Source: Sphingobacteriia bacterium | Lineage (GTDB): Bacteria; Bacteroidota; Bacteroidia; Bacteroidales; TTA-H9 | Assembly: GCA_021286705.1 (NCBI GenBank) | Contig: JAJTBW010000002.1 | Coordinates: 1 to 59,414, forward strand | Direction of reading: 5' to 3' | DNA: 59,414 bases | Shown: positions 19,492-59,414 of the stretch, piece after piece | How the letters are laid out: the number at the start of each line of letters is the position of its first letter | Numbering within the stretch: position 1 is the first letter of the stretch | Position numbers and translations under genes: made by a program | Notes under the pieces: model-generated | The model's input: the letters and a program-made list of their open reading frames with translations, nothing else | Database searches by the model: none | What the model was told of the DNA's origin: nothing

Positions 19492-19501
19492 TATTTATTA
19501 T

Positions 19502-20581: not shown

Positions 20582-20589
20582 TACCTTTG
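20582..20589 (+). promoter_or_regulatory. -7 promoter motif TACCTTTG upstream of rpe
   Basis: Exact TAnnTTTG match 26 nt upstream of the ATG at 20615. Confidence 0.45.
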
Positions 20590-20614
20590 TAAAAATAAAT
20601 TGAACTATCCCACC

Positions 20615-21271
20615 ATGCCTCTAATTGCCCCTTCCCTACTTTCAGCTGATTTCGGCCACCTGGCGGATGAAATCGAAATGCTCAACAGAAGCCAAGCCGA
20701 TTGGATTCATCTAGATATTATGGACGGTCAATTTGTACCCAATATCTCTTTCGGATTACCTGTGGTAAAAGCCGTAAAAAAACTAACATCTAAACCTCTT
20801 GATGTCCACCTAATGATAGTTCATCCTGAGAAGTATATTAGCTCTTTTGCTGAGGCAGGAGCTGACATACTAACTGTTCACTACGAAGCTGTTACCCATC
20901 TTCACCGAACCATTGATCAAATTAAATCGGAAGGAATGAAAGCTGGTGTGGTACTGAATCCGCATACCCCGGTTTCGCTTCTCGAAGATATTATTAAAGA
21001 GTTAGACTTAGTTTTACTAATGTCAGTTAATCCCGGCTTTGGTGGGCAGAAATTCATTGAGCAAACCTATAGAAAGATTGCTAAACTACGTGACCTGGCA
21101 CTAAACAATAACCATAACTTACTAATTGAAGTTGATGGCGGTGTGACTCTTGAAAATGCGCCCAAACTCTTCGCAGAAGGAGCTGATGTATTAGTTGCTG
21201 GAAATACGGTTTTTGTAGCTACTGACCCTATTAAGATGATTGAGAGTTTAAAGAAACCAGTGAAAGGATAG
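20615..21271 (+). CDS. rpe: ribulose-phosphate 3-epimerase
   Basis: PSLLSADF, HLDIMDG, VHLM, NPGFGGQKF and VDGG motifs. The ORF-track start at 20558 is a TTG extension that overlaps the promoter motif. Confidence 0.92.
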   Translation: MPLIAPSLLSADFGHLADEIEMLNRSQADWIHLDIMDGQFVPNISFGLPVVKAVKKLTSKPLDVHLMIVHPEKYISSFAEAGADILTVHYEAVTHLHRTIDQIKSEGMKAGVVLNPHTPVSLLEDIIKELDLVLLMSVNPGFGGQKFIEQTYRKIAKLRDLALNNNHNLLIEVDGGVTLENAPKLFAEGADVLVAGNTVFVATDPIKMIESLKKPVKG

Positions 21272-43410: not shown

Positions 43411-43540
43411 TATAACGGCCGCGGGTATGAGCAGGGGCGGACTTCGTAGCTGCGTCCGTATCCCACGTTACAGACCTAAGCTGCGAGACGAGCTGATGGA
43501 ACACCTGAACTACCCGCCATTACTTATACCCGTTGTTACC
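43411..43540 (-). repeat. attC-like imperfect palindrome D (last site, abuts core genome)
   Basis: Plus strand reads TATAAC...GTTACC. CGGGTAT (43422-43428) pairs with ATACCCG (43526-43532), and GGCGG (43436-43440) pairs with CCGCC (43514-43518). Lies 26 nt after the stop at 43567. Confidence 0.6.
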
Positions 43541-43566
43541 TGCTGTCCTTTATTCTTGTCAATCTT

Positions 43567-44559
43567 CTATTTATTGATTATTATATCTGTCAAGTTTAAA
43601 GCAATCTGTCCGTCACCCTCTTTTAATACATCATAATATTCCTCATCTTCAATTGGGTCATAATAATCCCCAAGGTCACCATAGTAACGAGGATTATAAA
43701 CACGTTCGTATTTGTCTTTAAAATCAGTTGTCAACGTATTGACTTTTTCGTCTTTGAATAAAACTTTTGCAAATATTTCATATTCTGTCGAATTGTCAAG
43801 AGATATGAATTTCCTGAATTGTTCAAACTCTATAAAAATATGTCGAAAGTTTTTGAACTTAAATACAGGATGCACTACTTCTATTTGACTTACGATAGTC
43901 TTGCCAAATTCAAAATTAAAGTTTTTACAAATTGCTTTTGAAACTGGAAGTGGTTGTCCTTTAAATTTCACTTTCAATTTTATTTCTCTTCCAGAATAAG
44001 CAGCTGGAACAAGAAAAAACAATTTGATAATGTTATTTGTGTTATCATATTCATCTTCAATTACTGCTGTAGCTTTTGGAGTCAATAATTCGTTAAATTT
44101 TCTTTGGAGTTTAGTAACTAAATCTTGCGAATTAGAAAATGTATCTATTGTATGTTTGTCTTTAAGAATAGCTTTGAAGTTATTTAGCTTTTGAATTTTG
44201 TCAAACTGAATTAAGTTTGGAGTTACAGCTGAACTTTCTTCGTCAATTAGATAGATTAGTATTTCTTTATTTTGTTCAACCGCTTTTTCATATTCTAATT
44301 GAGAATAGGATTTACCGCTATTCGGTTCTTCGCTACCATACCTCATTCCTATTATTCCAACATATATATCAGACTGTTCAACCTCAGAAATGCAAGTCGC
44401 TAAAGGATTAGATGTTCTTGCACCGAATTGTTCCATTCCTTTTACTGTAACATCAAATTTCTCAAGACTATCCCAAACCTTCTTCCTTTCCTCTTTTAAG
44501 TCAACAAACGTTGATGATATAAAAACAGTTTTTCTTGTTATTGTCTTTTTTGCAGTCAT
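43567..44559 (-). CDS. DUF4062-like N-terminal domain protein with uncharacterised beta-rich C-terminal domain
   Basis: 330 aa. N-terminus VFISSTFVDLKEER...DIYVGIIG.RYG...SYSQLEYEKA matches my recollection of the DUF4062 pattern (FISS.F.DL..ER, G.RYG, S.TE.EY..A). The C-terminal about 170 aa have no recognisable motif. Confidence 0.6.
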   Translation of the reverse strand: MTAKKTITRKTVFISSTFVDLKEERKKVWDSLEKFDVTVKGMEQFGARTSNPLATCISEVEQSDIYVGIIGMRYGSEEPNSGKSYSQLEYEKAVEQNKEILIYLIDEESSAVTPNLIQFDKIQKLNNFKAILKDKHTIDTFSNSQDLVTKLQRKFNELLTPKATAVIEDEYDNTNNIIKLFFLVPAAYSGREIKLKVKFKGQPLPVSKAICKNFNFEFGKTIVSQIEVVHPVFKFKNFRHIFIEFEQFRKFISLDNSTEYEIFAKVLFKDEKVNTLTTDFKDKYERVYNPRYYGDLGDYYDPIEDEEYYDVLKEGDGQIALNLTDIIINK

Positions 44560-44600
44560 TTTCTTTTTATTTTATGTCATTCTCGTATTTCAGGGTTGCA

Positions 44601-44730
44601 GGTAACGGATTGCAGCTACCCGAAGGTGGCGGTTTGGAACACTAAACTGTCTATATGCACCAATGTTTGTTTGAAACACAAATGTTCAAATGCACACTGT
44701 ACCGCCACTTTTGGGTAGGTGCTGTTAGCG
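44601..44730 (-). repeat. attC-like imperfect palindrome A
   Basis: Plus strand reads GGTAAC...GTTAGCG. CTACCCGAAGGTGGCGGT pairs with ACCGCCACTTTTGGGTAG (16/18). Lies 13 nt after the stop at 44744. Confidence 0.65.
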
Positions 44731-44743
44731 GCTGCTGTGCTTA

Positions 44744-45037
44744 TCATTCTTTATTCTTTCGTTTGTTTATCCAATTTGTTAGCCATTGAAGTTGTCCTGT
44801 GTAATAAAGATAAATACCTGAAACAAGTCCAATTAGAAACCACCATTTCATCATGTCAAGGTCTATGGGTTCAAAGTCGTCAGAAACGCCCCTACCATAA
44901 TATATTTCGTGCGGTTTGTTGAAGTCCTTGCCGTCAAAAACAATACCCCAAAATATTTGCCAACCTTGGTATAAAAACATTACCCCACCAATAAGGTAAA
45001 ACCCTATGTATGCTAAAACATTTATAAATCCTTTCAT
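44744..45037 (-). CDS. small membrane protein (two predicted TM segments)
   Basis: 97 aa. Hydrophobic stretches at residues 5-25 and 64-85, with a basic C-terminal tail. No family recognised. Confidence 0.5.
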   Translation of the reverse strand: MKGFINVLAYIGFYLIGGVMFLYQGWQIFWGIVFDGKDFNKPHEIYYGRGVSDDFEPIDLDMMKWWFLIGLVSGIYLYYTGQLQWLTNWINKRKNKE

Positions 45038-45104
45038 ATTCTTATGCTTTAATTTTCAAAGTATTCCAATCTCCGCTCCAAGCGTTCTTTTTATAGTAAC
45101 CTGT

Positions 45105-45236
45105 CTAAGCTCCATTCTTAATTAAGACATTGATTTTGTCTTTGTCCCAAGGGTCTGACTTGTATTTGTAGTCTTTTGCAAATATTAATGTTGCCGCGAA
45201 GACTAACAGTATCAAGAGAAGAATTGCTTTTTTCAT
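45105..45236 (-). CDS. possible 43-aa signal-peptide/membrane micropeptide (below the ORF-track cutoff)
   Basis: Hand translation gives MKKAILLLILLVFAATLIFAKDYKYKSDPWDKDKINVLIKNGA. Lies 67 nt upstream of the 97-aa ORF in the same cassette. Confidence 0.3.
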   Translation of the reverse strand: MKKAILLLILLVFAATLIFAKDYKYKSDPWDKDKINVLIKNGA

Positions 45237-45308
45237 TTTTTTACTTTTTTGTTTTTTATGCTTATAATAGTCGGTTTTCAGCGTCCCTGTTTACGGTCGG
45301 TTAAAGTT

Positions 45309-45444
45309 GCCGCTAACGGTGGCGATATGAAACGTAGCGATTTGCGTGACTGCAAACCTATCCTCTGTTACTGACCTTGCCAGCGGGTACTAAGCTTGCA
45401 AATTGCACTGAAACCACTATGTATTATGACCGCATGTTAGCGGC
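45309..45444 (-). repeat. attC-like imperfect palindrome B
   Basis: Perfect 9-bp terminal inverted repeat GCCGCTAAC / GTTAGCGGC. The inner arms pair only weakly. Lies 27 nt after the stop at 45472. Confidence 0.55.
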
Positions 45445-45471
45445 TCCGTTTTCTTTCTTTTAGTATTTCTA

Positions 45472-45969
45472 CTACCAAAATTTCCACCAAGGTTTTGTCT
45501 GTTCTGGTTCGTCATTTTCCGCTGTTAAAGACCAAAACTCCTCTTTAAAAGGCAAGTTTGTAAATTCCTTTGTCACTAGATGAACATAGGGATAAATCGA
45601 ATCTTCACTCCCATTCTGAAATCGTTTCATAACTTTTTGAATAGGCCAAATTTGTCCGTCATTTGGAAGTCTTAGAAATACATTAAGTTCGGCTTGTGGG
45701 TCATTGTCATCAGTTACCCATTCAGCACCTTTTACGTTTTTGATAATTGTCTCTCCAACATATGAACCAATTGAAAAAAGTTTTGGTCCAAATCCCTTAC
45801 CGTATAGTCGTCCACCTTTTTTAGGTTTTCCGTTTTTTATATTTACTTCAAAAAATCTGTCCACTTCAATAATACTTTCAATAGTGTAATCAAGTTTGAA
45901 GCCATCAGCCTCAAATGCTTTTACTATCCAGTCTGATTGTGATTTAATGTCTTCTTTTAAAGTTGCCAT
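45472..45969 (-). CDS. hypothetical cytoplasmic protein (single-gene cassette)
   Basis: 165 aa, no TM segment and no motif recognised. Trp-rich C-terminus (KPWWKFW). Confidence 0.55.
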   Translation of the reverse strand: MATLKEDIKSQSDWIVKAFEADGFKLDYTIESIIEVDRFFEVNIKNGKPKKGGRLYGKGFGPKLFSIGSYVGETIIKNVKGAEWVTDDNDPQAELNVFLRLPNDGQIWPIQKVMKRFQNGSEDSIYPYVHLVTKEFTNLPFKEEFWSLTAENDEPEQTKPWWKFW

Positions 45970-46020
45970 ATTTCAAATTCTTTTTGTTGCTTAACGTTTC
46001 AGTGGGCGTTTTAAACTGAC

Positions 46021-46098
46021 CGCTAACGTTTTGCGTGTAGGCGATGTTGCCTTGTGTTGCGCCTGCGGCAAGGCAATATTGCTTACACGCTGTTACCA
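46021..46098 (-). repeat. attC-like imperfect palindrome C (shortest, best hairpin)
   Basis: Plus strand reads CGCTAAC...GTTACCA. GCGTGTA (46033-46039) pairs with TACACGC (46084-46090), and GTTGCCTTG (46046-46054) pairs with CAAGGCAAT (46069-46077). Lies 23 nt after the stop at 46122. Confidence 0.7.
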
Positions 46099-46121
46099 CC
46101 AGTGCTATTATACATTTTCAA

Positions 46122-46835
46122 TTATTTCCAATCCACATGCCCCAAGGGTAATTCATTCAACTCCATTCGTGCCTCACGCCAATTGGGATAAAATTTATCC
46201 AATATAGCTATGAATTTTTCATTGTGTACCGGAACAATCAAGTGAGCCAGCTCATGAACAATGACATACTCTATAAGATCTTTGGGCTTTTTCACGAGCT
46301 CTGTATTCAATCTGATGTTTCTCGATTTGTGGTTGCAGCTTCCCCACTTGGTTTTCATCCGCTGTAGAAAATAAGCATTGGCTTTTATTCCAAGAATAGG
46401 TTCCCATTTTGCTACCGTTTCAAGAACATATTCATGAAGTTGCTTTTTTTGCCATTCATAAAATACTTCTTCCCGCTTGGACTTATTAGATCCCAGTTTA
46501 ACGAATAGGTTGATCTTTTTGTGATCAAGCGTCACTTGCTGCTTGCCATCTGTATGAACCACATTAAGTAGATACCTTCTTCCCCATACGTAATGCGATT
46601 CTCTCTTGACAAATTCGCGAGGCTTTTCTCTTGGTTGCTTGGCCAATTTCTCCTGCTGCAATCTTATCCAGGATAATTTTGATATGGCGTATGCTCTAGC
46701 CACTTCAAGGCGCGTGTTCAATGGAGCAGAAAGCGACACCCGACCATCCGGTGGATGAACCGACAGGTGGACATTTTTTATATCCTTCCTGGTCACCTCA
46801 ATTTTTAATTCTCCTAATTGAATAATATCCTTCAT
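46122..46835 (-). CDS. YgjP-like (DUF45/M48-type) zinc metallopeptidase
   Basis: 237 aa. HELAHL (HExxH) motif in [15 protein letters not shown]. Its start overlaps the hsdR stop by 4 nt. Confidence 0.85.
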
Positions 46836-49800
46836 TCGTAACCTTTCATGTTTTTCAGCAATTCAAAAAGCGCAGAAGTTGCTGCACGATCTCTTTGCAT
46901 GATGGGAAAAAGTGCATTTAATACCTGCTTTTCTCTTGTGTCATCTCCGCGCCATCCGGCTGGAGCCATCTCGCGCATTATCCTGTCAATTTCGAGCGCT
47001 AAAAGAACCAATTTATCTCCATATTCAACTTGTGGTTCTGCTGCGATGAGTGGACGAGCAGCATGCGATAAAATATCCGATAGGTTATTATAGATGATTA
47101 TGGCTTCAGACTTTCCTTGCAGTTTGGATGGCACACTGGTGTTGTATTGACCTTTAGCCATCTTTTGAACTAACTCTTCTGCCTTCTTCAAAAAGGCTTC
47201 ATACTCGGCAGTATCTTCTCGCTTTTGTTTTATCAAATCTTCTAAAAGCAATGACATCTCCTTATAAAACCGGGGATCAGTTAATTGATCTCTAATAATG
47301 GTTTGCCTTACGTTATTGATAATTCCCTCTGCTATTGAATTCCTGGATAGCTTCCCTTTTTCATTTAGCTTCTTAGCAATGGCATCGTGTATGCCTGTTT
47401 GGATGATCATCTCAACGAGCGAGTACTTATCGACTTCACCTATTGGATCGGCTGGATCGGCTTGGATATAAGTATTTATCAAATGCCGCATATCCGCTTC
47501 AAATGGCTTGATATCTAATTCTTCTCCACTGTATTTTTTAATCGCTGAGCGTATCTCCGTGTAAAGCTCAACCTCCGTATTAATGGCAAGTGCATCGGCA
47601 TCTGAATAACCTGCTTCGGTTAAATAACTTGATATGGCTGAAAATGCCCTTACAAAAGTTACCACCGATTTGTAAAAAGAGATTCGAAGTGGTTCGGTTT
47701 CAGTAAGAGATTCCGGGTTATTAGCATCGCCACAGAAGTACGCAATAAACTGTTCAACTTCTTTAGGTTGGGCAACGGGCTCGCATAGATATTTTAATGC
47801 CTCTCTTGCAGTATCTAATCGCTTTTTACCTTCTACCAACCAATTTTTTAATTCAACATTATTTTCACGGGTAGTACCATCTTCAGTATCTAATTCATTA
47901 GAGGTATAAACAGCAATGGCTTGCTGCACATCTCCGAATAATTCCTTGAAATCTACGATATAACCGAAATCCTTATCGTCACCATCTAATCTGTTTGTTC
48001 GGCAGATGGCCTGGAATAAATTATGATCTCTTAATTCATTATCCAGATAAATGTAAGAACAAGAAGGTGCATCAAAACCTGTAAGCAACTTACTCACTAC
48101 AATGAGTAGTTTACAATTAGCCGGCTCATCTTTGAACCTTCTTTTTATTTCATCTTCGTATTGTGTTGTTGTTTGATTAGTACTGAGCACATGTTGCGTA
48201 TAAGTATCAAACTTATAGCGTTCATCACTGTTTGCAGGTTCTCTGGAAATGTTATTGTGATTGGGTTCGTAAGAGGTAACAATACCGCAGTACTGGCCAA
48301 ATGATGTGTTCTTAAACAAACGGTAATAATGACAGGCATCGTAAATAGATGCTGCAACCAAAATAGCCGTCCCACGATTATTGTTTAGGCGATTTCTCAA
48401 ACTAAAATCTTCAATAATACTTGCAATAATTCGCTGCTTTCGCTCTCCGGCACTCATCAGTGATTCCATATTCGCCCAAGCTTTGCGAACCACCGCTTTT
48501 TGGAAGTTGTTTAAGTATCTCGTCTTTGCTTCAAACCAATTGTCTATGGCAGCTTGCGAGGTTAATTGTTGAGGAACATTTCGAGCTTCATATTTTAAAT
48601 CCAGCACAACACCATCTTTTACTGCCTCATGGAATTTATAGGTATGGATGTTTTTTCCAAATACTTCTCTAGTCGTTTGTTTGTCTTTTCTGAGTAAAGG
48701 TGTACCTGTGAAGCCAATGAATATGGCATTTTGCATCCAACGTTTCATTTGCTTATTCATATTTCCACCTTGTGTTCGATGGCATTCATCAACAAACACA
48801 AAAAATCGTCCACTCACCGCTGGCAATTCGCCTTCTAGATCGGTTGTATCAAATTTGTGAACCAGCGCACACAATAAACGAGGTGAAGTGGCTGAGATAG
48901 CTTCAATAAACTTGGCTCTTGAGGTTATCCGAGGGGAGGGTGCTGTTTCCGCAATGACTCCGGCATTGCGCATAACACCTTCTATTTGTTTATCCAGCTC
49001 ATCTCTGTCAGTAATCACTAAAATTCGGGCATCAGGATCGTGCTCCATGATCCATTTGGCTAGCAATACCATTAAGATACTCTTTCCACTGCCTTGTGTG
49101 TGCCAAATAACACCGCCTTCTCTGATGCGAATTCGTTCTTGTGCTGCTTTGATACCGGCAAATTGATGTGGACGAGGCACTTTCTTTTGTCCGGCATCGA
49201 AGATGATGAAATTCCGGATCAGATCGAGGATGCGCTCTTTACGACACATTTGTGCCAATGGAATATCCAATAACTCACCGGCAGTATTTCCGATTGGGCT
49301 TTTGGTTTCATCTTTCCATTCTACAAAAAACTGTTCCGGTGTACCGGTGGTTCCATATCGCAAGCCTTGAGAATCACTTCCGGCAAATACCAATTGAACA
49401 GTGGAGAAAAAACGTTCATTAAAAATGGATTCCTGGTTCGTGATCAACTGTCGAACACCATCCGCAACTTCAACAGAGCTTCGTTTTAATTCAATTACAC
49501 CAATGGCTATTCCATTGATGTAGATAACCAAGTCCGGTCTCCTTTCATGGCCACCTTTAAGGGTAACTTCTTCTGCAATTCCGAAATCATTGTTTTCTTT
49601 GTTTTCCCAATCGATGATATTAACATCCTCGTAGGGTGCACTGGCGGATGTTTTTACTTTAATAGGATAACGCAGCAGGCTATACGTTCGCAGATTGGCT
49701 TGATATAAAGTTGTACCTGTTGTATCTGCTGCCGTTTCTAATTGCACCAAGGCAGCCGCTATTTGCGCATCTGAATAACCACGTTTCTTAAGATTGTACT

Positions 49801-49936
49801 TGAGCAAATCAGTTTCAATATTCCTATGGGACTTGCTACTCCAATCACCTAAGTTTTCGTAACCCAAACAATTGGGAACCGAATGATCTGCAAAAAGTTT
49901 TATTACCCTGTTTTGGGTTTTACGTTCTGGTCTCAT
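46832..49936 (-). CDS. hsdR: type I restriction endonuclease subunit R
   Basis: 1034 aa. Helicase motif I TQGSGKS, motif [10 protein letters not shown] (DEAH-type), later SF2 motifs and a C-terminal helical domain. Confidence 0.95.
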
Positions 49937-51102
49937 ACCAATCTAATTTTACCCGTTAACAATGTCTGCATCATGCCTTGCTTTTGGTGTTTGAGCTTTA
50001 GGAGTTTAAAGTCTATTGAAGATATTAGTTCATCCATTTCATTGAGAACTATTGAAATGGAATCTTGTACATCTTTATTGGGGCAGTGTATCTCAATATT
50101 TTTGAGTTCACTCTTATTCAACTTAGCTCTTGTCCCCCCATTAATATAGTCTAATATATTTTTATGAACTACAGAATAATAAATGAAATCTTGATTGAAT
50201 TGACTCTTGGCTTTCAAAATATGGGCATGATTATTTACCCAACATTTACCGGACATTCTATAAGCAATTGATCTTGTTTTAAATTCATCGAAATATCCAC
50301 CATCTTCTGCCATTAATATCATTTCAAAGTCTGTTAAATATTCATTTATATAATCAACAACTCCATTAGCGCCACAATAAGGTATATCTCCTTTCATTCT
50401 TTGTCTTTCAGCATCATTCAAGGGCTTTCTAAGATTATTAAGAATATCACAGCAATCATTAATGGTCATTTTCTCCCAACCCTCCTTCGGCCTGAGCAAT
50501 TCCTGCATTACCCCTTGTTTGATGGCCTTCTTTTTTTCGATGAGCTTTTCGGTTTGGGTTATCAAAGCATCTATATCCGATAAGGCAGTGGCAATGGCGG
50601 TTTGTTCTGGAAGAGGGGGTAAAGGAATCTTTATACTTTTGACCTTAGAGGGGCTTATCTCAAGAAATGTACTTCCGCTTGCATTTTGAAGTAGTACATT
50701 CTTTTTTGTCAACATTAAATAGTAAAGAAATTCATTGTTAATCTTTGAATTAGCAATTAAAGATTGGAATCCTTGATTTGTTGCAGCTTCACATTTTAAT
50801 ATTCCCAAGTCGCCAATCCCCGCTCTAGAAGTAAGTAATATTGTTCCAGGGCACAAAACTTTAGCAGATGAATTTCTTAATCCTAAATCAGTAATTTTTC
50901 TTCTGCTTGAAAATAAATATTTGTCATATCCAACCTCGGTTGGAGTAAACCAATTTATATCTCCATCCCAGAAATCATTTATTCTGGTGCTTGGTGTACC
51001 ACCACCAAGCACTAATGCAACATCAGATATTTCAACAACTACCCATTCATCTGGAATAATCATTATTTCTGTATTTTTATATTTCTCCGCTACTAACTCC
51101 AT
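49933..51102 (-). CDS. hsdS: type I restriction-modification specificity subunit S
   Basis: 389 aa. Two target-recognition domains separated by the conserved central helix [21 protein letters not shown], with a C-terminal [15 protein letters not shown]. Confidence 0.9.
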
Positions 51103-53546
51103 ACAAATCCCATTTTTTTAAGGTGAGTATTCACTTTGTCTTCTAGGGATTTTACTTCCTTATTTAGTAAAGGAAGTGGAGTATCATAGCGTTCAATCAA
51201 TTCTTTTACTCTACCTGTCAATTGCTGGCTAATGCGATCCATTTCAGTTTTAACGGTTATTTCGATTGCCGGTAGCCATTTGTGCTCAATCAAAATCGAT
51301 TGTACTTCTGTTTCGGTAAGTTGCGGATATTTTTCATACGCTTTTTTATCCAGAGCTTCTTCTTGCTTTTTAATGGAGGCTTTTAGTTCTGCTTGTTTAG
51401 CATCTAACTCAATCCATTGATTCAATAATTCGGCTTCTTCTTTGGCCTCTTTATCGCCTTTGATTTCTTTCAATCGCTTGTTGATATCTCCTTTGTTGAT
51501 TTTGTTTAATGTGCTAAAAACACCTTCCTCTCCGCTATCTTGTGGTGAGCCCGCAGAACCATTTTCTTCCTCTAATTCAGTAAGTGATGCTTGTGCGTTT
51601 TCCAGTTCTGCTTGGAGGGTATCTAAAGCCGTTTTTTCTTTTTGAAAATAAATGGATACCAACAGCTCTTTTGGTATCAAGTCGCAAGTCCAACCCTTGT
51701 CTTTTTTCTTGCCTTTATCCTTGCCCGCTTTCACTTCTTCCAATACTCTACGCGTTTCTGCTTTCCAACCATCGGCTGCAATCAAGTAGGCATCATCCTG
51801 CATGGTTTCATTCCAGTAATTCATCAAATGCTGATACACATCGTAGGCATCAATGAGTTTGGCTTTTTTGAACGCATTCAACAGGCTTTCCGATAAATCT
51901 CCGATCAATGCTTTGGGATGTGCATCTTTTCCAAAGGCATTCAGTTGGGGAACTACTTTCTTCTTCCATGCCTCATAGATTTTTGTATTCTCATTTTTCA
52001 AGGTTTCAAATTCTACATCTTGATGAATGGCAGGTTTAATTTCTGTGGCCGCCAACTTTGCCTCCAGATAACCATTTCTTGCGTTTTTGAACAAGGTATT
52101 TCGCAAACCTGGTAAGACTTCCCAGTAGGCACTCATGTTGTCAATATCGCGCAGGGGAATACCGCCATTCAAGTGCGCATCAATATCCTGAATATCTTCC
52201 AGCTCCGTAGCATCAATGTAACGAGGTATATTCAGGTTGTAATCATTTTTAGGATCAGCAATCTCATCTACAGGAACCATTCGGGAAAACTTGTCAATGG
52301 TTTCTTGTTTCATAAAGGTATCCACGATTTTATGAATGTCTTGCTCTCTCAAACGGTTTTTGTTGCCGTCTTTCATAAACCCCTTGCTGGCATCCACCAT
52401 GAATATGCCTTTTCGTGCCTGGGCATTTTCCTTATCCAAAACGAGGATACAGGCCGGTATGCCTGTTCCGTAAAACAAGTTAGCCGGTAATCCAATTACT
52501 CCTTTCAAAATACCTGAGTTGATCAGATTTCTTCTTATTCCAGCTTCCGCATTGCCTCGGAATAATACACCATGCGGCAAAATGCAAGCTGCCTTACCAG
52601 TGCTTTTCATGGAGCGGATGATGTGCAACAGGTACGCATAATCACCTTGCTTTGCAGGTGGCTCGCCCCATTCAAATCTTCTATATAAATCAGAGGTAGG
52701 TGTAATACCGGTGCTCCAGGTTTTATCGGAAAATGGCGGATTGGCTACTACATAATCGTAAGTACGGAGATTGGTACCATCGAGGAATTTGGGATTCGCC
52801 AGTGTATTTCCAGCCATGATATTGGCCGTTGGAAAATCGTGTAGAATCATATTCATTCTGGCCAGACCGGAAGTGGTCACATCCATTTCCTGACCTTCCA
52901 ACGTGATGCGCTTTCCCGCTTCAGCTGCCACTTTCAAGAGCAACGAACCCGATCCGCAAGTAGGATCATAAGCCGTGGTTGCAGCTACAGAATTTTGTGC
53001 ATTGATGCCAATCACCTTGGCGAGAATTCTACTGACCTCGGCAGGGGTATAAAATTGTCCCTTGCTTTTTCCGCTTTCCTGTGCAAAATGCTGCATGAGA
53101 TATTCATAGGCATCTCCCAAAATATCGTCATGGTCTGCACGGTTTTTTGAAAAGTCGAGTGTAGAGTTATTAAAGATATTGATCAGATTAGTCAGTCGAT
53201 CAACCATGGCTTTTCCTTCACCCAGTTTATTGGGATCGTTGAAATCAGGAAAATCACTTCTTGATAATCGAGCGTTTGCATCAATCAGCGGTTGAATTAT
53301 CTGGGTATTGATTTTGTCGCCAATATCATCCTTGCCTCTTAATTCCAGCATATCCTTAAAGCTGGAGCCCTGGGGGATGGTTACCGGAGGGGCAAAATCA
53401 TCGGTGTCAGCATACTTATCAGACACATACTTGATGAACAACATGAACAGTACGTAGTCTTTGTATTGACTGGCGTCCATGCCGCCTCTTAGTTCATCAC
53501 AACTTGCCCAGATGGAGCTGTATAATTCGGATTTTTTGATTGCCAT
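51093..53546 (-). CDS. hsdM: type I restriction-modification N6-adenine DNA methyltransferase subunit M (long form, about 330-aa C-terminal extension)
   Basis: 817 aa. SAM motif DPTCGSGSLL and catalytic VVANPPFSDK, then a Lys/Glu-rich coiled-coil-like C-terminal region. Confidence 0.93.
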   Translation of the reverse strand: MAIKKSELYSSIWASCDELRGGMDASQYKDYVLFMLFIKYVSDKYADTDDFAPPVTIPQGSSFKDMLELRGKDDIGDKINTQIIQPLIDANARLSRSDFPDFNDPNKLGEGKAMVDRLTNLINIFNNSTLDFSKNRADHDDILGDAYEYLMQHFAQESGKSKGQFYTPAEVSRILAKVIGINAQNSVAATTAYDPTCGSGSLLLKVAAEAGKRITLEGQEMDVTTSGLARMNMILHDFPTANIMAGNTLANPKFLDGTNLRTYDYVVANPPFSDKTWSTGITPTSDLYRRFEWGEPPAKQGDYAYLLHIIRSMKSTGKAACILPHGVLFRGNAEAGIRRNLINSGILKGVIGLPANLFYGTGIPACILVLDKENAQARKGIFMVDASKGFMKDGNKNRLREQDIHKIVDTFMKQETIDKFSRMVPVDEIADPKNDYNLNIPRYIDATELEDIQDIDAHLNGGIPLRDIDNMSAYWEVLPGLRNTLFKNARNGYLEAKLAATEIKPAIHQDVEFETLKNENTKIYEAWKKKVVPQLNAFGKDAHPKALIGDLSESLLNAFKKAKLIDAYDVYQHLMNYWNETMQDDAYLIAADGWKAETRRVLEEVKAGKDKGKKKDKGWTCDLIPKELLVSIYFQKEKTALDTLQAELENAQASLTELEEENGSAGSPQDSGEEGVFSTLNKINKGDINKRLKEIKGDKEAKEEAELLNQWIELDAKQAELKASIKKQEEALDKKAYEKYPQLTETEVQSILIEHKWLPAIEITVKTEMDRISQQLTGRVKELIERYDTPLPLLNKEVKSLEDKVNTHLKKMGFVWS

Positions 53547-53552
53547 ATTTCG

Positions 53553-55385
53553 TTAATTCAGTTGTTCGTCTAATTTATGAATGCCCCATATTTTTTTAGC
53601 AAGTTCTTCATACAATTCCTGTCTTTCGAATAATGCTCTTTTGTCAAAAGTAGTATAGGGCTTAAACTGCAAATTTTCCGTTTCCATGAAGCGTTTAAAC
53701 TGTGGATTGTTCTGGTAGCAATCACTGTTGAGTGATTTTGCTAATAAATTTTCACCAAAATAAATCGGTAGCTTCTTATCAAACGTCAAATCGTTTAAGC
53801 TTCTGTTCTTGTCCATTGGCAAAAGCAATAAGCCACCAAACTTGTTGCGATGACGGTCAAAGGTTTCTTTTTCAGGATATTCAGCTACAAACCAATCGTG
53901 ATGATCGCAGATGATATGTTCAATATCATAAGGGTTTTTAATTTCCCTATTGATATAGTTATTGAAATTAGATGGTATGCCACTTTGTGTTTCAATGTAA
54001 TCTGTCACACGCGAAAGAATATGAAGCATGTATCGTATGGTCCAACCATTCAAGCGAAATTCATCGATGGTTTCCAATTGAAATTCACTTTCGGTAATTT
54101 CTTGTTTGCATACTTCAAGCAAATCAGGAAGTGGTTTCCTTCTAATTCTTTTAGAAAGCATAAACACGCTGTAAACAATTGCTGAATAGTCAACGGTTTT
54201 GTAATTAAAAATTCTACGGGTAAAATACAAATCCAAAAAGCAGGAAACTAATTTAATTTTTATGTCTGATTCCTCTTTGGTTTCCGAAGGGTCAATAGCA
54301 GCTAATATTAATTGATACTGCAATGTAAAATTCCTGTCGGCATTATAGAAAACATATTCAAAACCTTTAGTTAGGGTAGCGGAGTACTTTTTTAGGTCGA
54401 GGTAAATCTGGCTGAACTTATCAAACTGTTTTAAAACAAAGTATTCAAAGTCCTTGCTTCTGACCAGTTTCATTTGTGTATTGTGTTCTCTAACCCACTT
54501 GTGAAAGGCAGTACCGATAATATCAAAATCACCCGGTGATGCATTTTTCTTTCTTTCTCTTATGGTTTCTGCGTATTGAGAACGAATCCAGTTTTTAATA
54601 AAATCGCTTTCTTCTTCCTTCCCTAAACCTTTTAATTCAAGTATTCTTTTTTTCCAGAGGTCGTTAGCTTGTTGTCGAACACTATCATTTTCAATTTTAC
54701 TGAGTAAATACCCCTTCAACATTTCGGTTGGTGTTAAACTCAACCCTCTGTCGTTCATGGACACAAATATTTTGTGAGCATCTTGCTCTGTTTGAGCTAC
54801 AATGCGGATGAAATCTACATTGTCAATAAGCCAATCTTTAAAAATATCCAATGATTCTTTAGGCAAAGTATCATTCATGATTGCTTTGATGTCCGCATAG
54901 CGATTGTAGATATTTCGAATTGTTTCCGAATGTTTCGCAACATCCATGTATTTACCCTGCAGCAATGCGTTCATCACATCATAGCGTTCAGGCATTTCGG
55001 GCACATGAATATTAAATGTCTTTGTTCCGGCTTTCTTAGAATAAATCAGTTGTAATACTTCTGCTCTTTCTTCTTCGTCTTCCAACTGATGATATAAATA
55101 GATAAGCAGAAGTGTTAAAGACGTTAATCGTTGTTGTCCATCAATGATTGCGTTATCGTCTGCGGTTAAAACTATGGACCCCATGAAATAATGGCCATAC
55201 TCCAATACTTTTCCTCTTTCGTCTTGGACGGAATAGAACTCAAAGAATTCTTCGGTTAAGTCATCAATAAGTTCCTCAATTTGTTTGGTCTGCCATTGGT
55301 ACTCACGCTGGTAATAGTGGATAGTATATTTTACTCCAGTAAATAACTCTCTGATTGTTTTTGGTGTTCCGTCAATTTTTTTCAT
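53553..55385 (-). CDS. DUF262/DUF1524 protein (GmrSD-family type IV restriction-like enzyme)
   Basis: 610 aa. N-terminal ParB/DUF262 motif IIDGQQRLTSL. C-terminal His-Me finger-like DUF1524 pattern DIEHIICDHH ... LLLLPMDKNRSLND. First gene of the operon. Confidence 0.85.
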   Translation of the reverse strand: MKKIDGTPKTIRELFTGVKYTIHYYQREYQWQTKQIEELIDDLTEEFFEFYSVQDERGKVLEYGHYFMGSIVLTADDNAIIDGQQRLTSLTLLLIYLYHQLEDEEERAEVLQLIYSKKAGTKTFNIHVPEMPERYDVMNALLQGKYMDVAKHSETIRNIYNRYADIKAIMNDTLPKESLDIFKDWLIDNVDFIRIVAQTEQDAHKIFVSMNDRGLSLTPTEMLKGYLLSKIENDSVRQQANDLWKKRILELKGLGKEEESDFIKNWIRSQYAETIRERKKNASPGDFDIIGTAFHKWVREHNTQMKLVRSKDFEYFVLKQFDKFSQIYLDLKKYSATLTKGFEYVFYNADRNFTLQYQLILAAIDPSETKEESDIKIKLVSCFLDLYFTRRIFNYKTVDYSAIVYSVFMLSKRIRRKPLPDLLEVCKQEITESEFQLETIDEFRLNGWTIRYMLHILSRVTDYIETQSGIPSNFNNYINREIKNPYDIEHIICDHHDWFVAEYPEKETFDRHRNKFGGLLLLPMDKNRSLNDLTFDKKLPIYFGENLLAKSLNSDCYQNNPQFKRFMETENLQFKPYTTFDKRALFERQELYEELAKKIWGIHKLDEQLN

Positions 55386-55503
55386 TTATATTCCTTATTT
55401 ACAAGGTCATCGTTAAAGTCTGTCCGCTTGGTCGATATGGTCTGTATGTCGTTTCTATTTTCAGTCATTGTCTTGCTGTGTCGTCTGTCTTTTTAGCATT
55501 GGT

Positions 55504-55634
55504 GGTAACGGTTGACAGATTTGCGATGGGCGGGATTTTTACCACTAATGTTTATGAGGAGCACAAAACTTTTGGCTACCACTAAACTGCCTGCGGAGCA
55601 CGAAACCCCGCCTATTGCAAATGTGCTGTTATAC
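55504..55634 (-). repeat. attC-like imperfect palindrome E
   Basis: Plus strand reads GGTAAC...GTTATAC. Arm 55515-55534 pairs with arm 55607-55626 at 16/20. Lies 6 nt after the stop at 55641. Confidence 0.7.
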
Positions 55635-55640
55635 GCAGCA

Positions 55641-56510
55641 TTACTTCCCTTTATTCGTAACACACGCTTCTCTAAATTGTATTCCTAATTCTGTTAATTC
55701 TATGTATTTTTCAATTTCTGTAATTCCAGTATGTTCAGTATCGTATTGGGCTTTAAATTTTTCATACTCGTCTGTTTTGATTAGAATGTCATAAGCATTT
55801 GGCCCAACAAGATGTCGTCCTGCTGGCATATGTAAAAGTCCAAGTCGGCATAAATTGTCTATATACTTTGATGTCAAGTCTGGATATTTACAGCCCGCCT
55901 CTTGTCCAATATTTGAATAATTATTTACAAGGTTAAGTTCACCACCCGTCCCATTTTTCATTTTTAGTTTAATGTCCATTATTGGCTTATAAACATTTGG
56001 ATAAAAAACCTTCAAAATAAGTCCTTCGTCCGATGTCATATTTTTAATTATTTCAACAAAGCCTGGATGTGCTTTTTTGATTGTCTCCTTATCCATTGAG
56101 TTTGCTATGAGATTAGCATAAAGTTCACTCAGGGTCTCATTGTTGCCTGTATACCTTAATGCTTCTAAAGCAGGTCCAACAATTGAAGGGTCAGGTGTAA
56201 CTATATTTTCTTCTGGAATATCTTTTAGCTTTTCGGCAACTCTGTTTTGAACAAACTCACTAATTTTTTCATAGCCCCAAACTAAAGCACTAATTGGGGC
56301 AAGGGCAATATTGATTGTCTTAGTAACTGTCGCTAATGACTTTCCTATTTCTTTCGCAGCAGGTTGGATTGTATCATTATATACTGGAACTGCTTTTACA
56401 AGTCCTGTTACAGCGTCAATAGTGCTTTTTACATTGCTGTCTTTAGGATTATTTTCAGGTGTCTCCATTGTTTTTATATTTAGTCTGTGTCGTTTCAAAA
56501 TGTTGCGCAT
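55641..56510 (-). CDS. Abi-alpha (DUF4393)-like protein
   Basis: Conserved-looking core PAAKEIGKSLATVTKTINIALAPISALVWGYEKI ... ELYANLIANSMD ... HPGFVEIIKNMTSDEGLILK resembles the Abi-alpha pattern. Start uncertain: ATG at 56510 lies inside the attC-like core, ATG at 56468 gives METPENN, and the track start at 56549 runs through the palindrome. Confidence 0.6.
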   Translation of the reverse strand: MRNILKRHRLNIKTMETPENNPKDSNVKSTIDAVTGLVKAVPVYNDTIQPAAKEIGKSLATVTKTINIALAPISALVWGYEKISEFVQNRVAEKLKDIPEENIVTPDPSIVGPALEALRYTGNNETLSELYANLIANSMDKETIKKAHPGFVEIIKNMTSDEGLILKVFYPNVYKPIMDIKLKMKNGTGGELNLVNNYSNIGQEAGCKYPDLTSKYIDNLCRLGLLHMPAGRHLVGPNAYDILIKTDEYEKFKAQYDTEHTGITEIEKYIELTELGIQFREACVTNKGK

Positions 56511-56639
56511 AACGTTTTGAGGCTTGGTGTAGTAGCGGATTTTTAGCACAAAAGTTCAATCGAAGAACTGCACTTGAACCTACCACAAAACTTTCATACG
56601 AAGCACAGCACCCGCCATTACGCCAAACCGCTGTTGGCG
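56508..56639 (-). repeat. attC-like imperfect palindrome F
   Basis: Plus strand reads CATAAC...GTTGGCG. GAGGCTTGGTG pairs with CGCCAAACCGC (8/11), and TAGCGG pairs with CCGCCA. Lies 7 nt after the stop at 56647. Confidence 0.6.
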
Positions 56640-56646
56640 GTAGTTT

Positions 56647-57105
56647 TTATTCACTTTTATTCTCTGTTGTGTTTTGATTCCATGTCAAACTGATTATAAC
56701 TAAAATTGCAAGTGGGAAAATGGTATAAACCAAGAACTCTGTTATGTCATAATAGTAGGCGAATTTGTCGCCCCAATAATAATATCTTGAAAAGCCATCA
56801 AATGGCCAAAAGTCATTAAAACCACCGTTAGAGTTTTCACTTTTAAAAGCTCCTCCGGAAAATATTAATAAAAGTGAGAGATGCAGAAGTATCCAAGCCA
56901 AATACCATCCCATAGCTTTTTTAAGAAATTGATAGTCTATTGAAGACTTGTGAACTTCAGCTACTTGTCTTGTAATTTCTTTTTCAATAATTACTTCAGC
57001 AAGTTTTTCCTTCAATGTAGGTTCGCCTTCTGTCTGCTTGTGTCCACAATGCGAACAGAATTTTGAGTTGTCTGGGATTTGTGCCCCACATTCTATACAA
57101 TACAT
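56647..57105 (-). CDS. zinc-ribbon membrane protein
   Basis: 152 aa. N-terminal CxxC-X12-CxxC ribbon (YCIECGAQIPDNSKFCSHCG), then two hydrophobic segments (residues about 66-85 and 124-143). Confidence 0.6.
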   Translation of the reverse strand: MYCIECGAQIPDNSKFCSHCGHKQTEGEPTLKEKLAEVIIEKEITRQVAEVHKSSIDYQFLKKAMGWYLAWILLHLSLLLIFSGGAFKSENSNGGFNDFWPFDGFSRYYYWGDKFAYYYDITEFLVYTIFPLAILVIISLTWNQNTTENKSE

Positions 57106-57132
57106 ATTTTTATCTTTTGAATTGGTTGATAA

Positions 57133-57744
57133 TTAACACCTAACTCTTTTAATTGCTTCGTAGTCTTTTACAAATTTGTCAAGCTTGTATTCGTTGGAAT
57201 TGTATAATTCTCCTACAGTTGTCCCACAATAGCAAGTAAGAATAGCATCTTCGGTTGTGTTCTTTTCAAACAAAGCGAATTGATCGGGATTTACTTCAAA
57301 TGTTAATCTCAATACTTCTCCGTATTCAAGTCTTACAGGGAATTTTAACTGCTCCTTTGGAAACATCAGAAAAGTATCGTGCTCAATACCTGGCTTTAAT
57401 TCAAATTTCGGTGACACTTTAAAATATGGTTGATTAAAATATCTGTGCTCCTTTGTTAGATTGGTTATAGTTACACCCCAAAGGACAGCATTGTTCCCAT
57501 AGTTGGCAATTGCCGCAATAACTGTTAAGTAAATATTTGCTCCAACTTTCATTTCGCTTTCTAAATTGTTGTGTTTTTGAAGTTCAGTCAGTATCTCTTT
57601 TGGCAATTCAGATAGTTTGTTTTGAAAATCTATAAAAAATTTTCTCACCTGCTCTGTGTCAGAAAGGCTGATTGAAATTGTTGAGTTGTCGGCATCTTGT
57701 ATTACAACATTACCGTGTCCGTCTATATGTGAATTATTTAGCAT
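57133..57744 (-). CDS. hypothetical soluble protein sharing an N-terminal 25-aa module with the upstream small TM protein
   Basis: 203 aa with no known motif. The N-terminus MLNNSHIDGHGNVVIQDADNSTISI aligns with MKNESKIQGERNVNIQNVSKSKVSI of the 57734-57943 ORF. Confidence 0.55.
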   Translation of the reverse strand: MLNNSHIDGHGNVVIQDADNSTISISLSDTEQVRKFFIDFQNKLSELPKEILTELQKHNNLESEMKVGANIYLTVIAAIANYGNNAVLWGVTITNLTKEHRYFNQPYFKVSPKFELKPGIEHDTFLMFPKEQLKFPVRLEYGEVLRLTFEVNPDQFALFEKNTTEDAILTCYCGTTVGELYNSNEYKLDKFVKDYEAIKRVRC

Positions 57745-57943
57745 AAAACAAATTTATAAGTTGCTCCCATCCAATTAAAATTTGAATAATAAGTCCAAAT
57801 AATGCAATAATAACAGGAATAATGATCCAAAATTTGTTCACTTTACCTGCAGTTACTTTCTTGTCGCCAATTGAAACTTTGGATTTAGAAACATTTTGGA
57901 TGTTTACATTTCTCTCTCCTTGTATTTTGCTTTCATTTTTCAT
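57734..57943 (-). CDS. small single-pass membrane protein
   Basis: 69 aa. Polar N-terminus and one TM segment (FWIIIPVIIALFGLIIQILIGW). Overlaps the next ORF by 11 nt. Confidence 0.45.
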   Translation of the reverse strand: MKNESKIQGERNVNIQNVSKSKVSIGDKKVTAGKVNKFWIIIPVIIALFGLIIQILIGWEQLINLFYAK

Positions 57944-58106
57944 TTTTCATTTTACAATTTGTGTGTCTTTAAAATTACTGTCAACTCATTTATCTTAGTA
58001 CATGACAAAAATTAACCTAATGAAAATCAGTAAATTAAGATAAGAAAAATTTGGAAATGACGTTGATTTTCAATAAATAAGAAGAATAATACTAATCATT
58101 TTTCTA

Positions 58107-58298
58107 ATGAAGAAAACCAACGTCACGAGTAAAATTACTGATTTGTTCCCAATATTAGATACTCATTTCAAAGGAAAAATCAATCGTTCCAGATTAAAAT
58201 TGATGTCTATGTTTGTAATCGCGCTCTGTAAGGTCCAAACGGTCTGCTTTGAGAAGCTTTCGAAGGCTTTCGATAGTGAAGCATTACCCTCTTCCTCC
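58107..58298 (+). pseudogene. N-terminal fragment of a DDE-type transposase (IS4-like, family uncertain), truncated
   Basis: The first about 60 aa (LFPILDTHFKGKINRSRLKLMSMFVIALCKVQTVCFEKLSKAF) resemble the N-termini of IS transposases, from memory. The reading frame runs into the unrelated 119-bp repeat at 58299, and no DDE domain follows. Confidence 0.35.
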
Positions 58299-58417
58299 TC
58301 AAATTCATACCAAGGGATAAACGGATCATAAGTCCCCTCAAGACTCATGCAGTTGTCATAACCTAAAACCAGACATCGGGTTAAAGGATACATCCTACTG
58401 CTCAATTTAGCTTAGTC
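58299..58417 (-). repeat. 119-bp direct repeat, copy 1 (5' UTR + first 36 codons of the glycine-zipper gene family, truncated copy)
   Basis: 107/119 identical to 59295-59413. TTG replaces the ATG start. The coding continuation is antisense transposase sequence, so this is a gene remnant. Confidence 0.85.
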
Positions 58418-58468
58418 AAATATATTAAATTGAAGCAACAGTTGCGATAAAAACACCAGTTGTAGTTA

Positions 58469-58502
58469 AACAATGAACCCCATCTAAACGGACTTCATTG
58501 TT
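58469..58502 (-). terminator. hairpin 3 nt after the stop of the 4-TM gene (weak terminator candidate)
   Basis: AACAATGAA ... TTCATTGTT 9-bp stem with a 16-nt loop, followed on the minus strand by TTTAAC. Confidence 0.3.
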
Positions 58503-58505
58503 AGG

Positions 58506-59006
58506 TTACATTTTTAGGCCCAGGATATTAAGCAAGAATACCAGTAGAACAAAGGCAAATGAAAGCAAGCCATATTTAATTTTATCTGCTTTCCCCCATT
58601 CCTCAAACTGTTCAAAATAACTTAAATACTTGTCTTTCTTAAAAACAAAAAAGTACGATAAAGCTACCGTCAAAATTCCACAAAATATAAAGTGGAGAGC
58701 GGATAGAGTAATATTTCCCGATAATAGCTTTAACAGAATATTAAGAGCTGCAAGAAAAAAGAAAAATAAGATTCCTAACATAGCCCCTCCGGCTACTATC
58801 ATACTTATTCCATATTCTTTATTTCCGAATGCCTTATCTATCTCTTTATAAATATCAATTCCCAACTTCTCATACCTTCTTTTCTGAAAAGGCAATTTAT
58901 GTATGAGAAGAAAAGGGTTTATTTTATTTGCAAATAGATGAAGTTTATAATCAGCTCTATAAAAGCAAAAGTGCAATACGTTTAAATAATTTTCTATCCT
59001 TTTCAT
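58506..59006 (-). CDS. four-TM membrane protein (immunity-like partner of the upstream glycine-zipper peptide)
   Basis: 166 aa. Hydrophobic segments at about 66-92, 98-122 and 142-163. The start codon overlaps the upstream stop by 1 nt (TGATG... context). Confidence 0.5.
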   Translation of the reverse strand: MKRIENYLNVLHFCFYRADYKLHLFANKINPFLLIHKLPFQKRRYEKLGIDIYKEIDKAFGNKEYGISMIVAGGAMLGILFFFFLAALNILLKLLSGNITLSALHFIFCGILTVALSYFFVFKKDKYLSYFEQFEEWGKADKIKYGLLSFAFVLLVFLLNILGLKM

Positions 59007-59401
59007 TATCTGTCGTGATAATAATTAACACTAATTTCTCCAACCTTATTACCAGTGAGACTTCCAGCATTTCCGCCAACAAATCCTCCAATAATGGCAT
59101 CTGGTACTGCTCCAACTCCACCAAACCAGGCCACTATTGCTGCTCCTAGAGCTACTTCGGCTTCTGCACCTGCCAATCCGCCTACAATTCTACCGGTTGC
59201 AGATGTGCCTGCTACATTTGCATTTTCCCATTCAGAAAAAGATAAGGCTTCAGTGGTGCCTTCAACATGTCTCAGTGCACCATTTGGGGCAACATCAAAT
59301 TCATACCAAGGGATAAAAGGATTATAAGTCCACACAAGACTCATGCAATTATTATAACTTAAAACCAGACATCGGGTTAAATGATACATCCTACTGCTCA
59401 T
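59006..59401 (-). CDS. small protein with C-terminal glycine-zipper region (bacteriocin/membrane-toxin-like)
   Basis: 131 aa. Its C-terminal half is rich in GxxxG/A repeats (GRIVGGLAGAEAEVALGAAIVAWFGGVGAVPDAIIGGFVGGNAGSLTG). An in-frame TAA three codons upstream of the ATG closes the ORF inside the window. Confidence 0.5.
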   Translation of the reverse strand: MSSRMYHLTRCLVLSYNNCMSLVWTYNPFIPWYEFDVAPNGALRHVEGTTEALSFSEWENANVAGTSATGRIVGGLAGAEAEVALGAAIVAWFGGVGAVPDAIIGGFVGGNAGSLTGNKVGEISVNYYHDR

Positions 59402-59413
59402 TTTATCTTAGCC
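59295..59413 (-). repeat. 119-bp direct repeat, copy 2 (runs to the window edge)
   Basis: See copy 1. Similarity continues to the last bases of the window, so the true repeat length is unknown. Confidence 0.85.
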
Positions 59414-59414
59414 A

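Follow-up and report, generated by a model that had tools for sequence, protein, structure and literature searches.

The contig JAJTBW010000002.1 of an uncultured Bacteroidales bacterium, analysed here over its entire length of 59,414 nt (the window), raises the question of which recombination system assembled the block from 43411 to ~57993, where six gene cassettes and six imperfect palindromes of 78–136 nt occupy 14.5 kb. Both ends of this array lie within the window. A first-pass annotation of this DNA had proposed an integron-type array without an integrase; the functional part of that reading stands, and the filing of the palindromes as attC sites of a classical integron, or of the block as a group of clustered attC sites with no integrase (CALIN), does not. 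The caveat attached to it, that these may be a divergent attC class or the sites of another recombinase, proved to be its correct part. The block is very probably a recombinase-less array belonging to an integron-like system with a wide distribution in Bacteroidota, Ignavibacteria and Chlorobi. In each cassette, a folding site of ~139 nt (short forms of ~80–100 nt) stands behind a single gene or several co-oriented genes. Read on the strand opposite the genes, the site is closed by the helix (Y)TAAC-G / T-GTTR, carries a 4-nt bulge in its 5′ arm and continues with an imperfect stem of ~22 bp, which has two almost invariant G·T pairs, and a central region of constrained length.

All six palindromes were present where they had been reported, each just 3′ of a minus-strand gene unit with 6–27 nt between stop codon and palindrome, and the 13 open reading frames (ORFs) between 43567 and 57943 are all on the minus strand and co-oriented. 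The plus-strand termini read, in order, TATAAC..GTTACC, GGTAAC..GTTAGC, GCTAAC..GTTAGC, GCTAAC..GTTACC, GGTAAC..GTTATA and CATAAC..GTTGGC, and the strings CCCGCCATTAC and CACTAAACTG, each common to a pair of palindromes, were found as described. Together with one site from the strain contig L008, the six window sites made up a founding set of seven, aligned at both ends (alignments A1 and A2), from which a covariance model, R1, was built. The window sites, all given on the plus strand, are as follows.

43411–43540, plus strand: site E1, the last of the array; R1 score 63.1 bits; the TATAAC half is chromosomal, and the junction with the empty allele, AAC↓G, lies at 43416/43417 (here and below, the arrow marks a junction).
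44601–44730, plus strand: site E2; R1 score 71.5 bits; plus-strand fold z = −4.47.
45309–45444, plus strand: site E3, irregular in structure, its 9-bp closing stem being formed by GCCGCTAAC and GTTAGCGGC; R1 score 18.9 bits.
46021–46098, plus strand: site E4, a short form; R1 score 69.8 bits; z = −4.27; 22-bp stem with three G·T pairs on the plus strand.
55504–55634, plus strand: site E5; R1 score 62.8 bits.
56508–56639, plus strand: site E6, 90% identical to the 140-nt 'master' consensus of the whole phylum.

The founding sites have a common hairpin plan, in which TAAC pairs with GTTA, the G after AAC is opposite the T preceding GTT, the 5′ arm alone then has four unpaired bases, and an imperfect stem of ~22 bp comes next, with non-Watson–Crick positions that are mostly G·T on the plus strand. 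TAAC-G ... T-GTT is invariant in all seven sites and the family consensus is GCTAAC ... GTTAGC; from the RYYYAAC/GTTRRRY ends proposed earlier the TAAC/GTT core is preserved and the full consensus is not, with agreement confined to the inner 5 positions and the actual ends being (Y)TAAC-G ... T-GTTR(G/C)C. The lopsided spacer is real, with 4–5 nt after AAC on the 5′ arm versus 0–2 nt before GTT on the 3′ arm, and the hairpin alignments of the founding sites did not reveal single-base bulges (extrahelical bases) on the 3′ arm. In the arms-only alignment of the seven sites, 90.5% of the cells are paired and compensatory changes are seen in 18 of the 22 stem pairs; none of 500 shuffles and no slid register came near this pairing score. 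The pairs G11·T69 and G29·T54 are G·T in seven sites out of seven, and the founding and family alignments show, in place of extrahelical bases, the fixed G·T pairs and a C·A mismatch. Among the six window sites, E3 scores poorly. R1 found no element in the 43 kb of core genes of the window and matched only family sites in the window and in the strain loci; five of the six window sites, which are training members, score 62–72 bits, and independent members elsewhere reach 75 bits. An Rfam scan at gathering and permissive thresholds returned nothing relevant. A duplex core-site reading of the master site, GCCGC-TAACGTTTT-GCGGC, was abandoned, as neither E2 nor E4 preserves the local inverted repeat.

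Folding of the sites as single-stranded DNA, compared with shuffled sequences, gave z = −4.5 for the plus strand of E2, −4.3 for E4 and −2.9 for E5; the plus strands of E1, E3 and E6 fold no better than shuffled sequence. The mean fold energy of the six sites is −21.8 kcal/mol for the plus strand, which is opposite the genes, versus −19.5 kcal/mol for the minus strand (a difference of ~2.3), and the master consensus site folds equally on both strands.

The distribution of the family was traced with a 28-nt motif of the 3′ arm, CCCGCCATTACNNNNNNCCGNTGTTRSC, common to E1 and E6, which was scanned in contigs representing one genome per species. At least 118 genome stretches were matched versus ~1 expected by chance (our own calculation), nearly all of them from Bacteroidota, Ignavibacteria or Chlorobi, with ~7 contigs labelled as other phyla. 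Distinct further R1 matches amount, after de-duplication, to 133 + 59 + 27 + 5, or ~224, the first 133 + 59 coming from 8-kb blocks around the motif, and many of these sites form co-oriented arrays, e.g., ten sites within 8 kb in Halpernia frigidisoli. The site length is 138–141 nt, with minor classes near 100 and 80 nt. Among 119 full-length sites (114 matches and five window sites), identity to the master consensus is 90% or more for 38 and below 70% for 56, the latter having the same length and structure all the same. In an alignment of 147 matches, 90% of the cells are paired, 22 of the 27 pairs show compensatory changes, and the two fixed positions are G·T in ~126–131 of the ~133 rows that represent the true strand. 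The sites are also placed consistently with respect to genes: on the expected side, an ORF of at least 50 aa ends within 90 nt of the site in 85 of 126 cases (median distance 12 nt), versus 19 of 119 on the other side. The 89 proteins encoded upstream of sites fall into 84 clusters, which shows how varied the cargo is.

Distant genomes contain the same discrete site types in almost identical form, so that sequence is kept beyond structure; the E6 type is the phylum-wide master, the arm sequence of E4 is identical at L105:4468-4551 (a Bacteroidota metagenome-assembled genome, MAG), and the E5 type is also found at L046:6908-7046 (a Ferruginibacter MAG) and L099:717-855 (a Flammeovirgaceae MAG). 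Conservation runs ~12 nt past GTT, and cassettes begin with GTTAGCGGcAaT. Many cassettes (e.g., in the window from 55509 and 56513 downwards, and in L029–L146) carry a ..ACGAC..ACAGAC.. motif 20–45 nt beyond this beginning and before the start codon; it may extend the recombinase site or act as a signal for expression.

Comparisons between genomes point to the place where the sites are exchanged. A two-gene cassette of L046 is 97% identical to one in L089 (a Chitinophaga MAG) and 85% identical to one in L090 (a Chitinophagales MAG); in the three loci the homology starts exactly at GTTAGCGGGCATTG, upstream of which L046 has the integrase-side sequence, whereas L089 and L090 each have a family site, not the same one. 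For a second cassette, common to L056 and L061, the homology stops exactly at the end of ...CTGCTAAC on the folding strand. The pattern is that of integrons, with insertion beside the integrase and between cassettes, and with exchange at the GTT/AAC triplet.

The same triplet marks the ends of the window array. Strains were collected as contigs encoding an identical copy of the neighbouring DUF2179 protein, and the region after the ICMT-family gene was compared; five haplotypes were found. The array of the window is also present in L006, L014 and L018, L008 has a different site and different genes in this slot, and the remaining contigs are without an array. The empty allele reads GCTTATAACG↓TATTATCAAATT, and the window and L008 diverge from it exactly at TTATAAC↓G. 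The distal array end is therefore a junction made by recombination at the AAC triplet, and where the array borders the ICMT-family gene, other strains have an empty site. At the other end, the first cassette begins, on the gene (minus) strand, with ATAAATGA↓GTTGACAGTAATTTTAAAGACAC, which fits the cassette-leader pattern and the integrase-side junction TATGA↓GTTGGCGGTCATTG of L110; only 8 nt of the upstream partner site are left. The right-hand flank is common to the window and the L005/L013 haplotype from ~57988–57994 onward, and this flank of another island haplotype truncates the upstream array end 8 nt past the first crossover point. The two features concerned are the following.

57980–57993, plus strand: start of the first cassette, GTCAAC (AAC at 57983–57985), plus 8 nt of the upstream partner site.
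57994–58293, plus strand: array-truncating flank with a short ORF fragment (58107–58290), 91.7% identical to L013 20017–20450.

This ORF fragment gave the impression of a transposase N-terminus or insertion sequence remnant; Pfam and NCBIfam searches revealed no match to it, so this assignment is no more than an impression. In L005/L013, the slot that corresponds to 43417–57993 of the window (10831–19831) holds an unrelated island with genes for an SMC-like ATPase, an MmeI-type methyltransferase, an SNF2/PLD helicase and a helix-turn-helix protein; this position behind the ICMT-family gene is a hotspot for defence islands in general.

The window itself did not reveal the enzyme: neither a tyrosine recombinase nor an IntI integrase was found in it. 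A phmmer search of the motif loci, with an IntI1 sequence 100% identical to the annotated IntI1 as the probe, found 11 tyrosine recombinases (E 1e-30 to 1e-45). Their best NCBIfam family is NF040815, 'XerA / integron integrase' (194–228 bits, cut-off 220), and TIGR02249, 'integron integrase', matches below its cut-off of 265 (170–217 bits) in two stretches that skip profile positions 180–236. A MAFFT alignment with IntI1 shows a gap of ~52 residues over the additional (I2) domain, and residues 184–244 of the solved VchIntIA (2A3V) have only 18 counterpart residues; the best PDB matches are XerA structures. Pfam assigned Phage_int_SAM_4 and Phage_integrase and no family to the first 75–125 residues; the recombinase has an IntI-type SAM_4 core-binding domain and usually an extra N-terminal domain of ~100 aa. 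A reverse search of metagenome contigs with the recombinase alignment A4 returned 80 loci, 14 of which contain R1 matches; 13 of the recombinases of these loci were aligned and all show the I2 gap. In total, the I2 insertion is absent in 24 of the 24 array-linked recombinases examined, and among the 118 + 80 loci that were fetched or searched, none was found to encode an IntI-type protein with the insertion. Sites and a recombinase occur together in 25 loci; in every one of them the recombinase occupies the promoter-proximal array end, co-directionally with the cassettes in 17 loci and divergently in 8, and orthologues in Flavobacterium flevense and F. daejeonense occupy a conserved chromosomal position with family sites downstream. 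At E ≤ 1e-30 the recombinase belongs to a set of at least 7,997 protein clusters, not all of which need be array-linked; in their sources, these carry no other name than 'site-specific integrase' or 'XerD'. An AlphaFold2 model computed from the single recombinase sequence had a predicted local distance difference test (pLDDT) score of 34 and was unusable.

Repeats were observed between the recombinase gene and the first cassette. L041 (reverse complement, 4265–4400) and L033 (reverse complement, 4228–4350) each contain two CGCTAC-N4-GTAGCG palindromes and L144 (reverse complement, 3524–3730) contains two direct repeats, GCGCATTTTGTATTGT; in all three loci the repeats are followed by ..TA↓GTTRGC. 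These repeats are candidates for an attI-like site.

With the boundaries and the recombinase at hand, it can be asked whether the palindromes have a role in recombination at all. GC-rich intergenic palindromes lying immediately 3′ of genes may be repetitive extragenic palindromic (REP)-like elements, terminators or palindromes resembling miniature inverted-repeat transposable elements, and the failure of E1, E3 and E6 to fold better than shuffled sequence is in line with such a role. The favoured fold, however, is on the non-transcribed strand, and its G·T pairs become C·A mismatches in the mRNA sense. Nor is the pattern that of REP elements or bacterial interspersed mosaic elements: the sites are absent from the 43 kb of core DNA, stand in one orientation in arrays, and are the places where homology between genomes breaks, exactly at the AAC/GTT triplet. 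Together with the fixed linkage to a recombinase, these results largely refute structural repeats, which we regard as extremely improbable.

The relation to classical integrons was assessed with class 1 attC sites. The sites fetched have spacers of 6 nt and 5–6 nt and an extra base in L′′, which agrees with the unpaired central spacer of 5–6 nt on both arms described for attC (PMC5027507). A second covariance model, R2, made in house from eight class 1 attC sites of annotated plasmids, recovers every class 1 site in eight loci, including one that was not used in training; with default filters it found no match in the window array or in 14 Bacteroidota arrays, and R1 found no class 1 site in the class 1 attC loci. 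The covariance-model check that had been recommended for the window sites, run with this home-made class 1 model, was accordingly negative. Searches with cmsearch filters switched off miss sites with long central inserts (0 found in L237, the Flavobacterium daejeonense locus, versus four with default filters), so a filters-off negative has little weight, and the class 1 model search was redone with default filters.

The family resembles sedentary chromosomal integrons and CALINs in the co-oriented and mostly promoterless cassettes, which each have at their end an imperfect palindrome with ..TAAC/GTTA.. as its closure, in the crossover at a conserved GTT triplet, in the recombinase at the promoter-proximal end, in the diverse and often defence-related cargo, and in the existence of integrase-less clusters, probably produced by rearrangement; class 1 attC and family sites are alike in the CTAAC/GTTAG closing helix and the overall logic. 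Unlike attC, the family sites have no extrahelical bases, a spacer of 4–5 versus 0–1 nt instead of 5–6 nt on both arms, two fixed G·T pairs, a length held tightly near 139 nt and conservation ~12 nt past GTT. Their recombinase lacks I2, usually has the extra N-terminal domain and is co-directional with the cassettes in 17 of the 25 loci; R1 and R2 do not cross-detect. The array could still be the remnant of a classical integron, i.e., a CALIN with divergent attC sites served in trans by an I2-bearing IntI, the I2-less recombinases being unrelated passengers. In favour of this are the architecture, the TAAC/GTTA ends, the GTT triplet as the crossover point and the better folding of the bottom strand, all of them consistent with integrons; there are also reports of both integrons and CALINs from Bacteroidota, Chlorobi and Ignavibacteria (PMC8618304, PMC9024848). 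IntegronFinder 2.0, on the other hand, found only one complete integron in Bacteroidetes among ~21,000 genomes (PMC9024848), which suggests that the present family goes undetected. The structure of the sites, their failure to match the class 1 model, the lack of any I2-bearing IntI-type protein in the 118 + 80 loci and the I2-less recombinase at the same array end in every one of the 25 loci likewise argue against filing them as classical attC, and we consider this origin improbable.

If the integron-like system is as proposed, the recombinase would cleave at the AAC/GTT triplet on a folded single strand, and the folded site would recombine with a site beside the recombinase gene or with another cassette site, giving insertion, excision and reshuffling of cassettes. 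The 4-nt bulge and the fixed mismatches would set the polarity in place of extrahelical bases, and resolution would be replicative. In the window, the platform recombinase would have been lost, or would never have travelled with the array, and since no such recombinase is present there, the array could now change only through a recombinase acting in trans. It is best regarded as a truncated element that has no platform.

The main mechanistic rival accepts the same elements and the same recombinase and supposes Xer-like recombination of a duplex or cruciform with two strand exchanges. XerA is the closest solved structure, the master site folds equally on both strands, and the recombinase lacks I2, the domain held to block the second cleavage in integrons (PMC4792948). 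In a duplex, however, the AAC and GTT half-sites would be 70–130 bp apart, and they meet only when the palindrome folds; the fixed G·T pairs and the bias of G·T to one strand argue for one folded strand. In L237, two group II intron reverse-transcriptase genes (14422–15612 and 20101–21044) lie between family sites on the strand opposite the cassettes, an arrangement paralleled by the attC-targeting group IIC introns of integrons, which target hairpins. During the integration of phage CTX, XerCD uses a folded single-stranded site with one strand exchange, which shows that I2 is dispensable for hairpins; the CTX case is mentioned in PMC4792948. Xer-like duplex recombination is, in our judgement, unlikely, though less so than a classical origin of the array. 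XerA and the XerCD-dif systems resemble the family in the simple tyrosine recombinase without I2; unlike the family, they use one chromosomal 28-bp site and have no cassette arrays with sites of their own. The pdif modules of Acinetobacter plasmids are genes bounded by 28-bp duplex Xer sites in alternating orientation and without a long hairpin; the family is similar in that gene modules are bounded by Xer-type sites and different in that its sites are palindromes of 78–140 nt in a single orientation. Integrons of the Treponema denticola type also have an integrase gene co-directional with the cassettes, as have most loci of the family, but their integrase is a canonical IntI with the additional domain and their attC sites are canonical.

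Several observations weigh against the integron-like reading preferred here. The window, a whole contig, contains no recombinase. The strains show no partial variants of the array, which is all present (window, L006, L014, L018) or all absent. The five-gene unit of 9.4 kb between E4 and E5 is far larger than typical integron cassettes. In L152, two sites (6042–6179 and 7208–7346) lie upstream of the recombinase gene and five downstream, the sole departure from the usual arrangement. The motif search was skewed to one sequence type and R1 rests on seven sites. The choice of the recombining strand, and of a single-stranded substrate at all, is drawn indirectly, and the master site folds equally both ways.

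The cargo of the window array consists of a DUF4062 protein gene, three uncharacterised units, a 9.4-kb restriction-modification unit and an Abi-alpha gene, arranged as follows.

43567–44559, minus strand: DUF4062 protein of 330 aa (Pfam PF13271, E = 1e-25), cassette cargo.
44744–45236, minus strand: cassette with a 97-aa ORF (44744–45037) and a 43-aa ORF (45105–45236, coordinates transferred from the gene calls of the strain locus L006); no family assigned.
45472–45969, minus strand: 165-aa protein of a conserved uncharacterised family (homologue search), cassette cargo.
46122–55385, minus strand: 9.4-kb unit of five genes, encoding a YgjP-like peptidase, HsdR, HsdS, HsdM and a GmrSD-like enzyme (Pfam).
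55641–56470, minus strand: Abi-alpha protein (PADLOC PDC-S47), cassette cargo; likely start ATG at 56470.
56647–57943, minus strand: first (promoter-proximal) cassette, with a zinc-ribbon protein of 152 aa followed by ORFs of 203 aa and 69 aa.

PADLOC calls in the 9.4-kb unit are REase_I, MTase_I and HEC-06, and R1 found no match inside it. The description of the cargo as mostly defence-type is partly borne out, by the type I restriction-modification system, the GmrSD-like enzyme and Abi-alpha. For the ORF earlier delimited as 55641–56549, the most likely start is the ATG at 56470, which leaves no overlap with E6. The 165-aa protein has 286 homologues at E ≤ 1e-5, the best 120 of the 286 being 58–91% identical. 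These homologues (L019–L028) were tried as a route to relatives of the array, and no R1-type sites were found beside them. The regions around them are also variable and contain other palindromes; in L019 (10498–10625) and L020 (5373–5500), from another Bacteroidota species, the gene is followed by a different GC-rich palindrome, with conservation stopping ~17 nt past GTTAAGG, which is possibly another site class.

Beyond the array, the end of the window (58294–59414) and stretches of L001 (11235–20203) and L004 (11240–19560) contain tandem modules in 3–6 copies per strain, each composed of a gene for a ~130-aa protein with a conserved 5′ region of ~190 nt and a gene for a 166-aa membrane protein. 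The 5′ copies at 58299–58418 and 59295–59414 are 90% identical. The modules lie among lysozyme, LprI and NlpC/P60 genes and resemble a polymorphic toxin/immunity array.

The literature searched did not reveal a published I2-less integron-like system in Bacteroidota; the coverage was incomplete, and an earlier description is possible. Among the tyrosine recombinases, members of the 'integron-like' subgroup have been noted to be without the insertion in some cases (PMC8138268). The co-evolution of I2 with the extrahelical bases poses a chicken-and-egg problem that a 'functional intermediary form' would solve (PMC4792948); the acquisition of I2 is viewed as the step that enabled single-strand cassette recombination, and natural intermediates have been sought (PMC4792948, PMC7790495). 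We suggest tentatively, at somewhat less than even confidence, that the family is a phylum-wide, undescribed class of integrons, with hairpin sites devoid of extrahelical bases and an IntI/Xer-related integrase that never acquired or has lost I2, and that it represents either such an intermediary form or a case in which cassette capture arose independently for a second time.

Two co-evolved features, the I2 helix of IntI and the extrahelical bases of attC, serve both to define integrons and to search for them. The family described here shows the integron lifestyle with neither: its cassettes stand in arrays and include defence cargo, exchange takes place at GTT, there is a platform recombinase, and one and the same cassette is found in different genomes. 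If the mechanism is confirmed, current integron finders miss a whole class, and cassette capture would reach a phylum reported to be almost devoid of integrons (PMC9024848), with a large pool of uncatalogued cassettes, many of them likely anti-phage; the question of I2 would then become testable in the cultured Flavobacterium palustre, F. daejeonense, Algoriphagus ornithinivorans and Halpernia frigidisoli.

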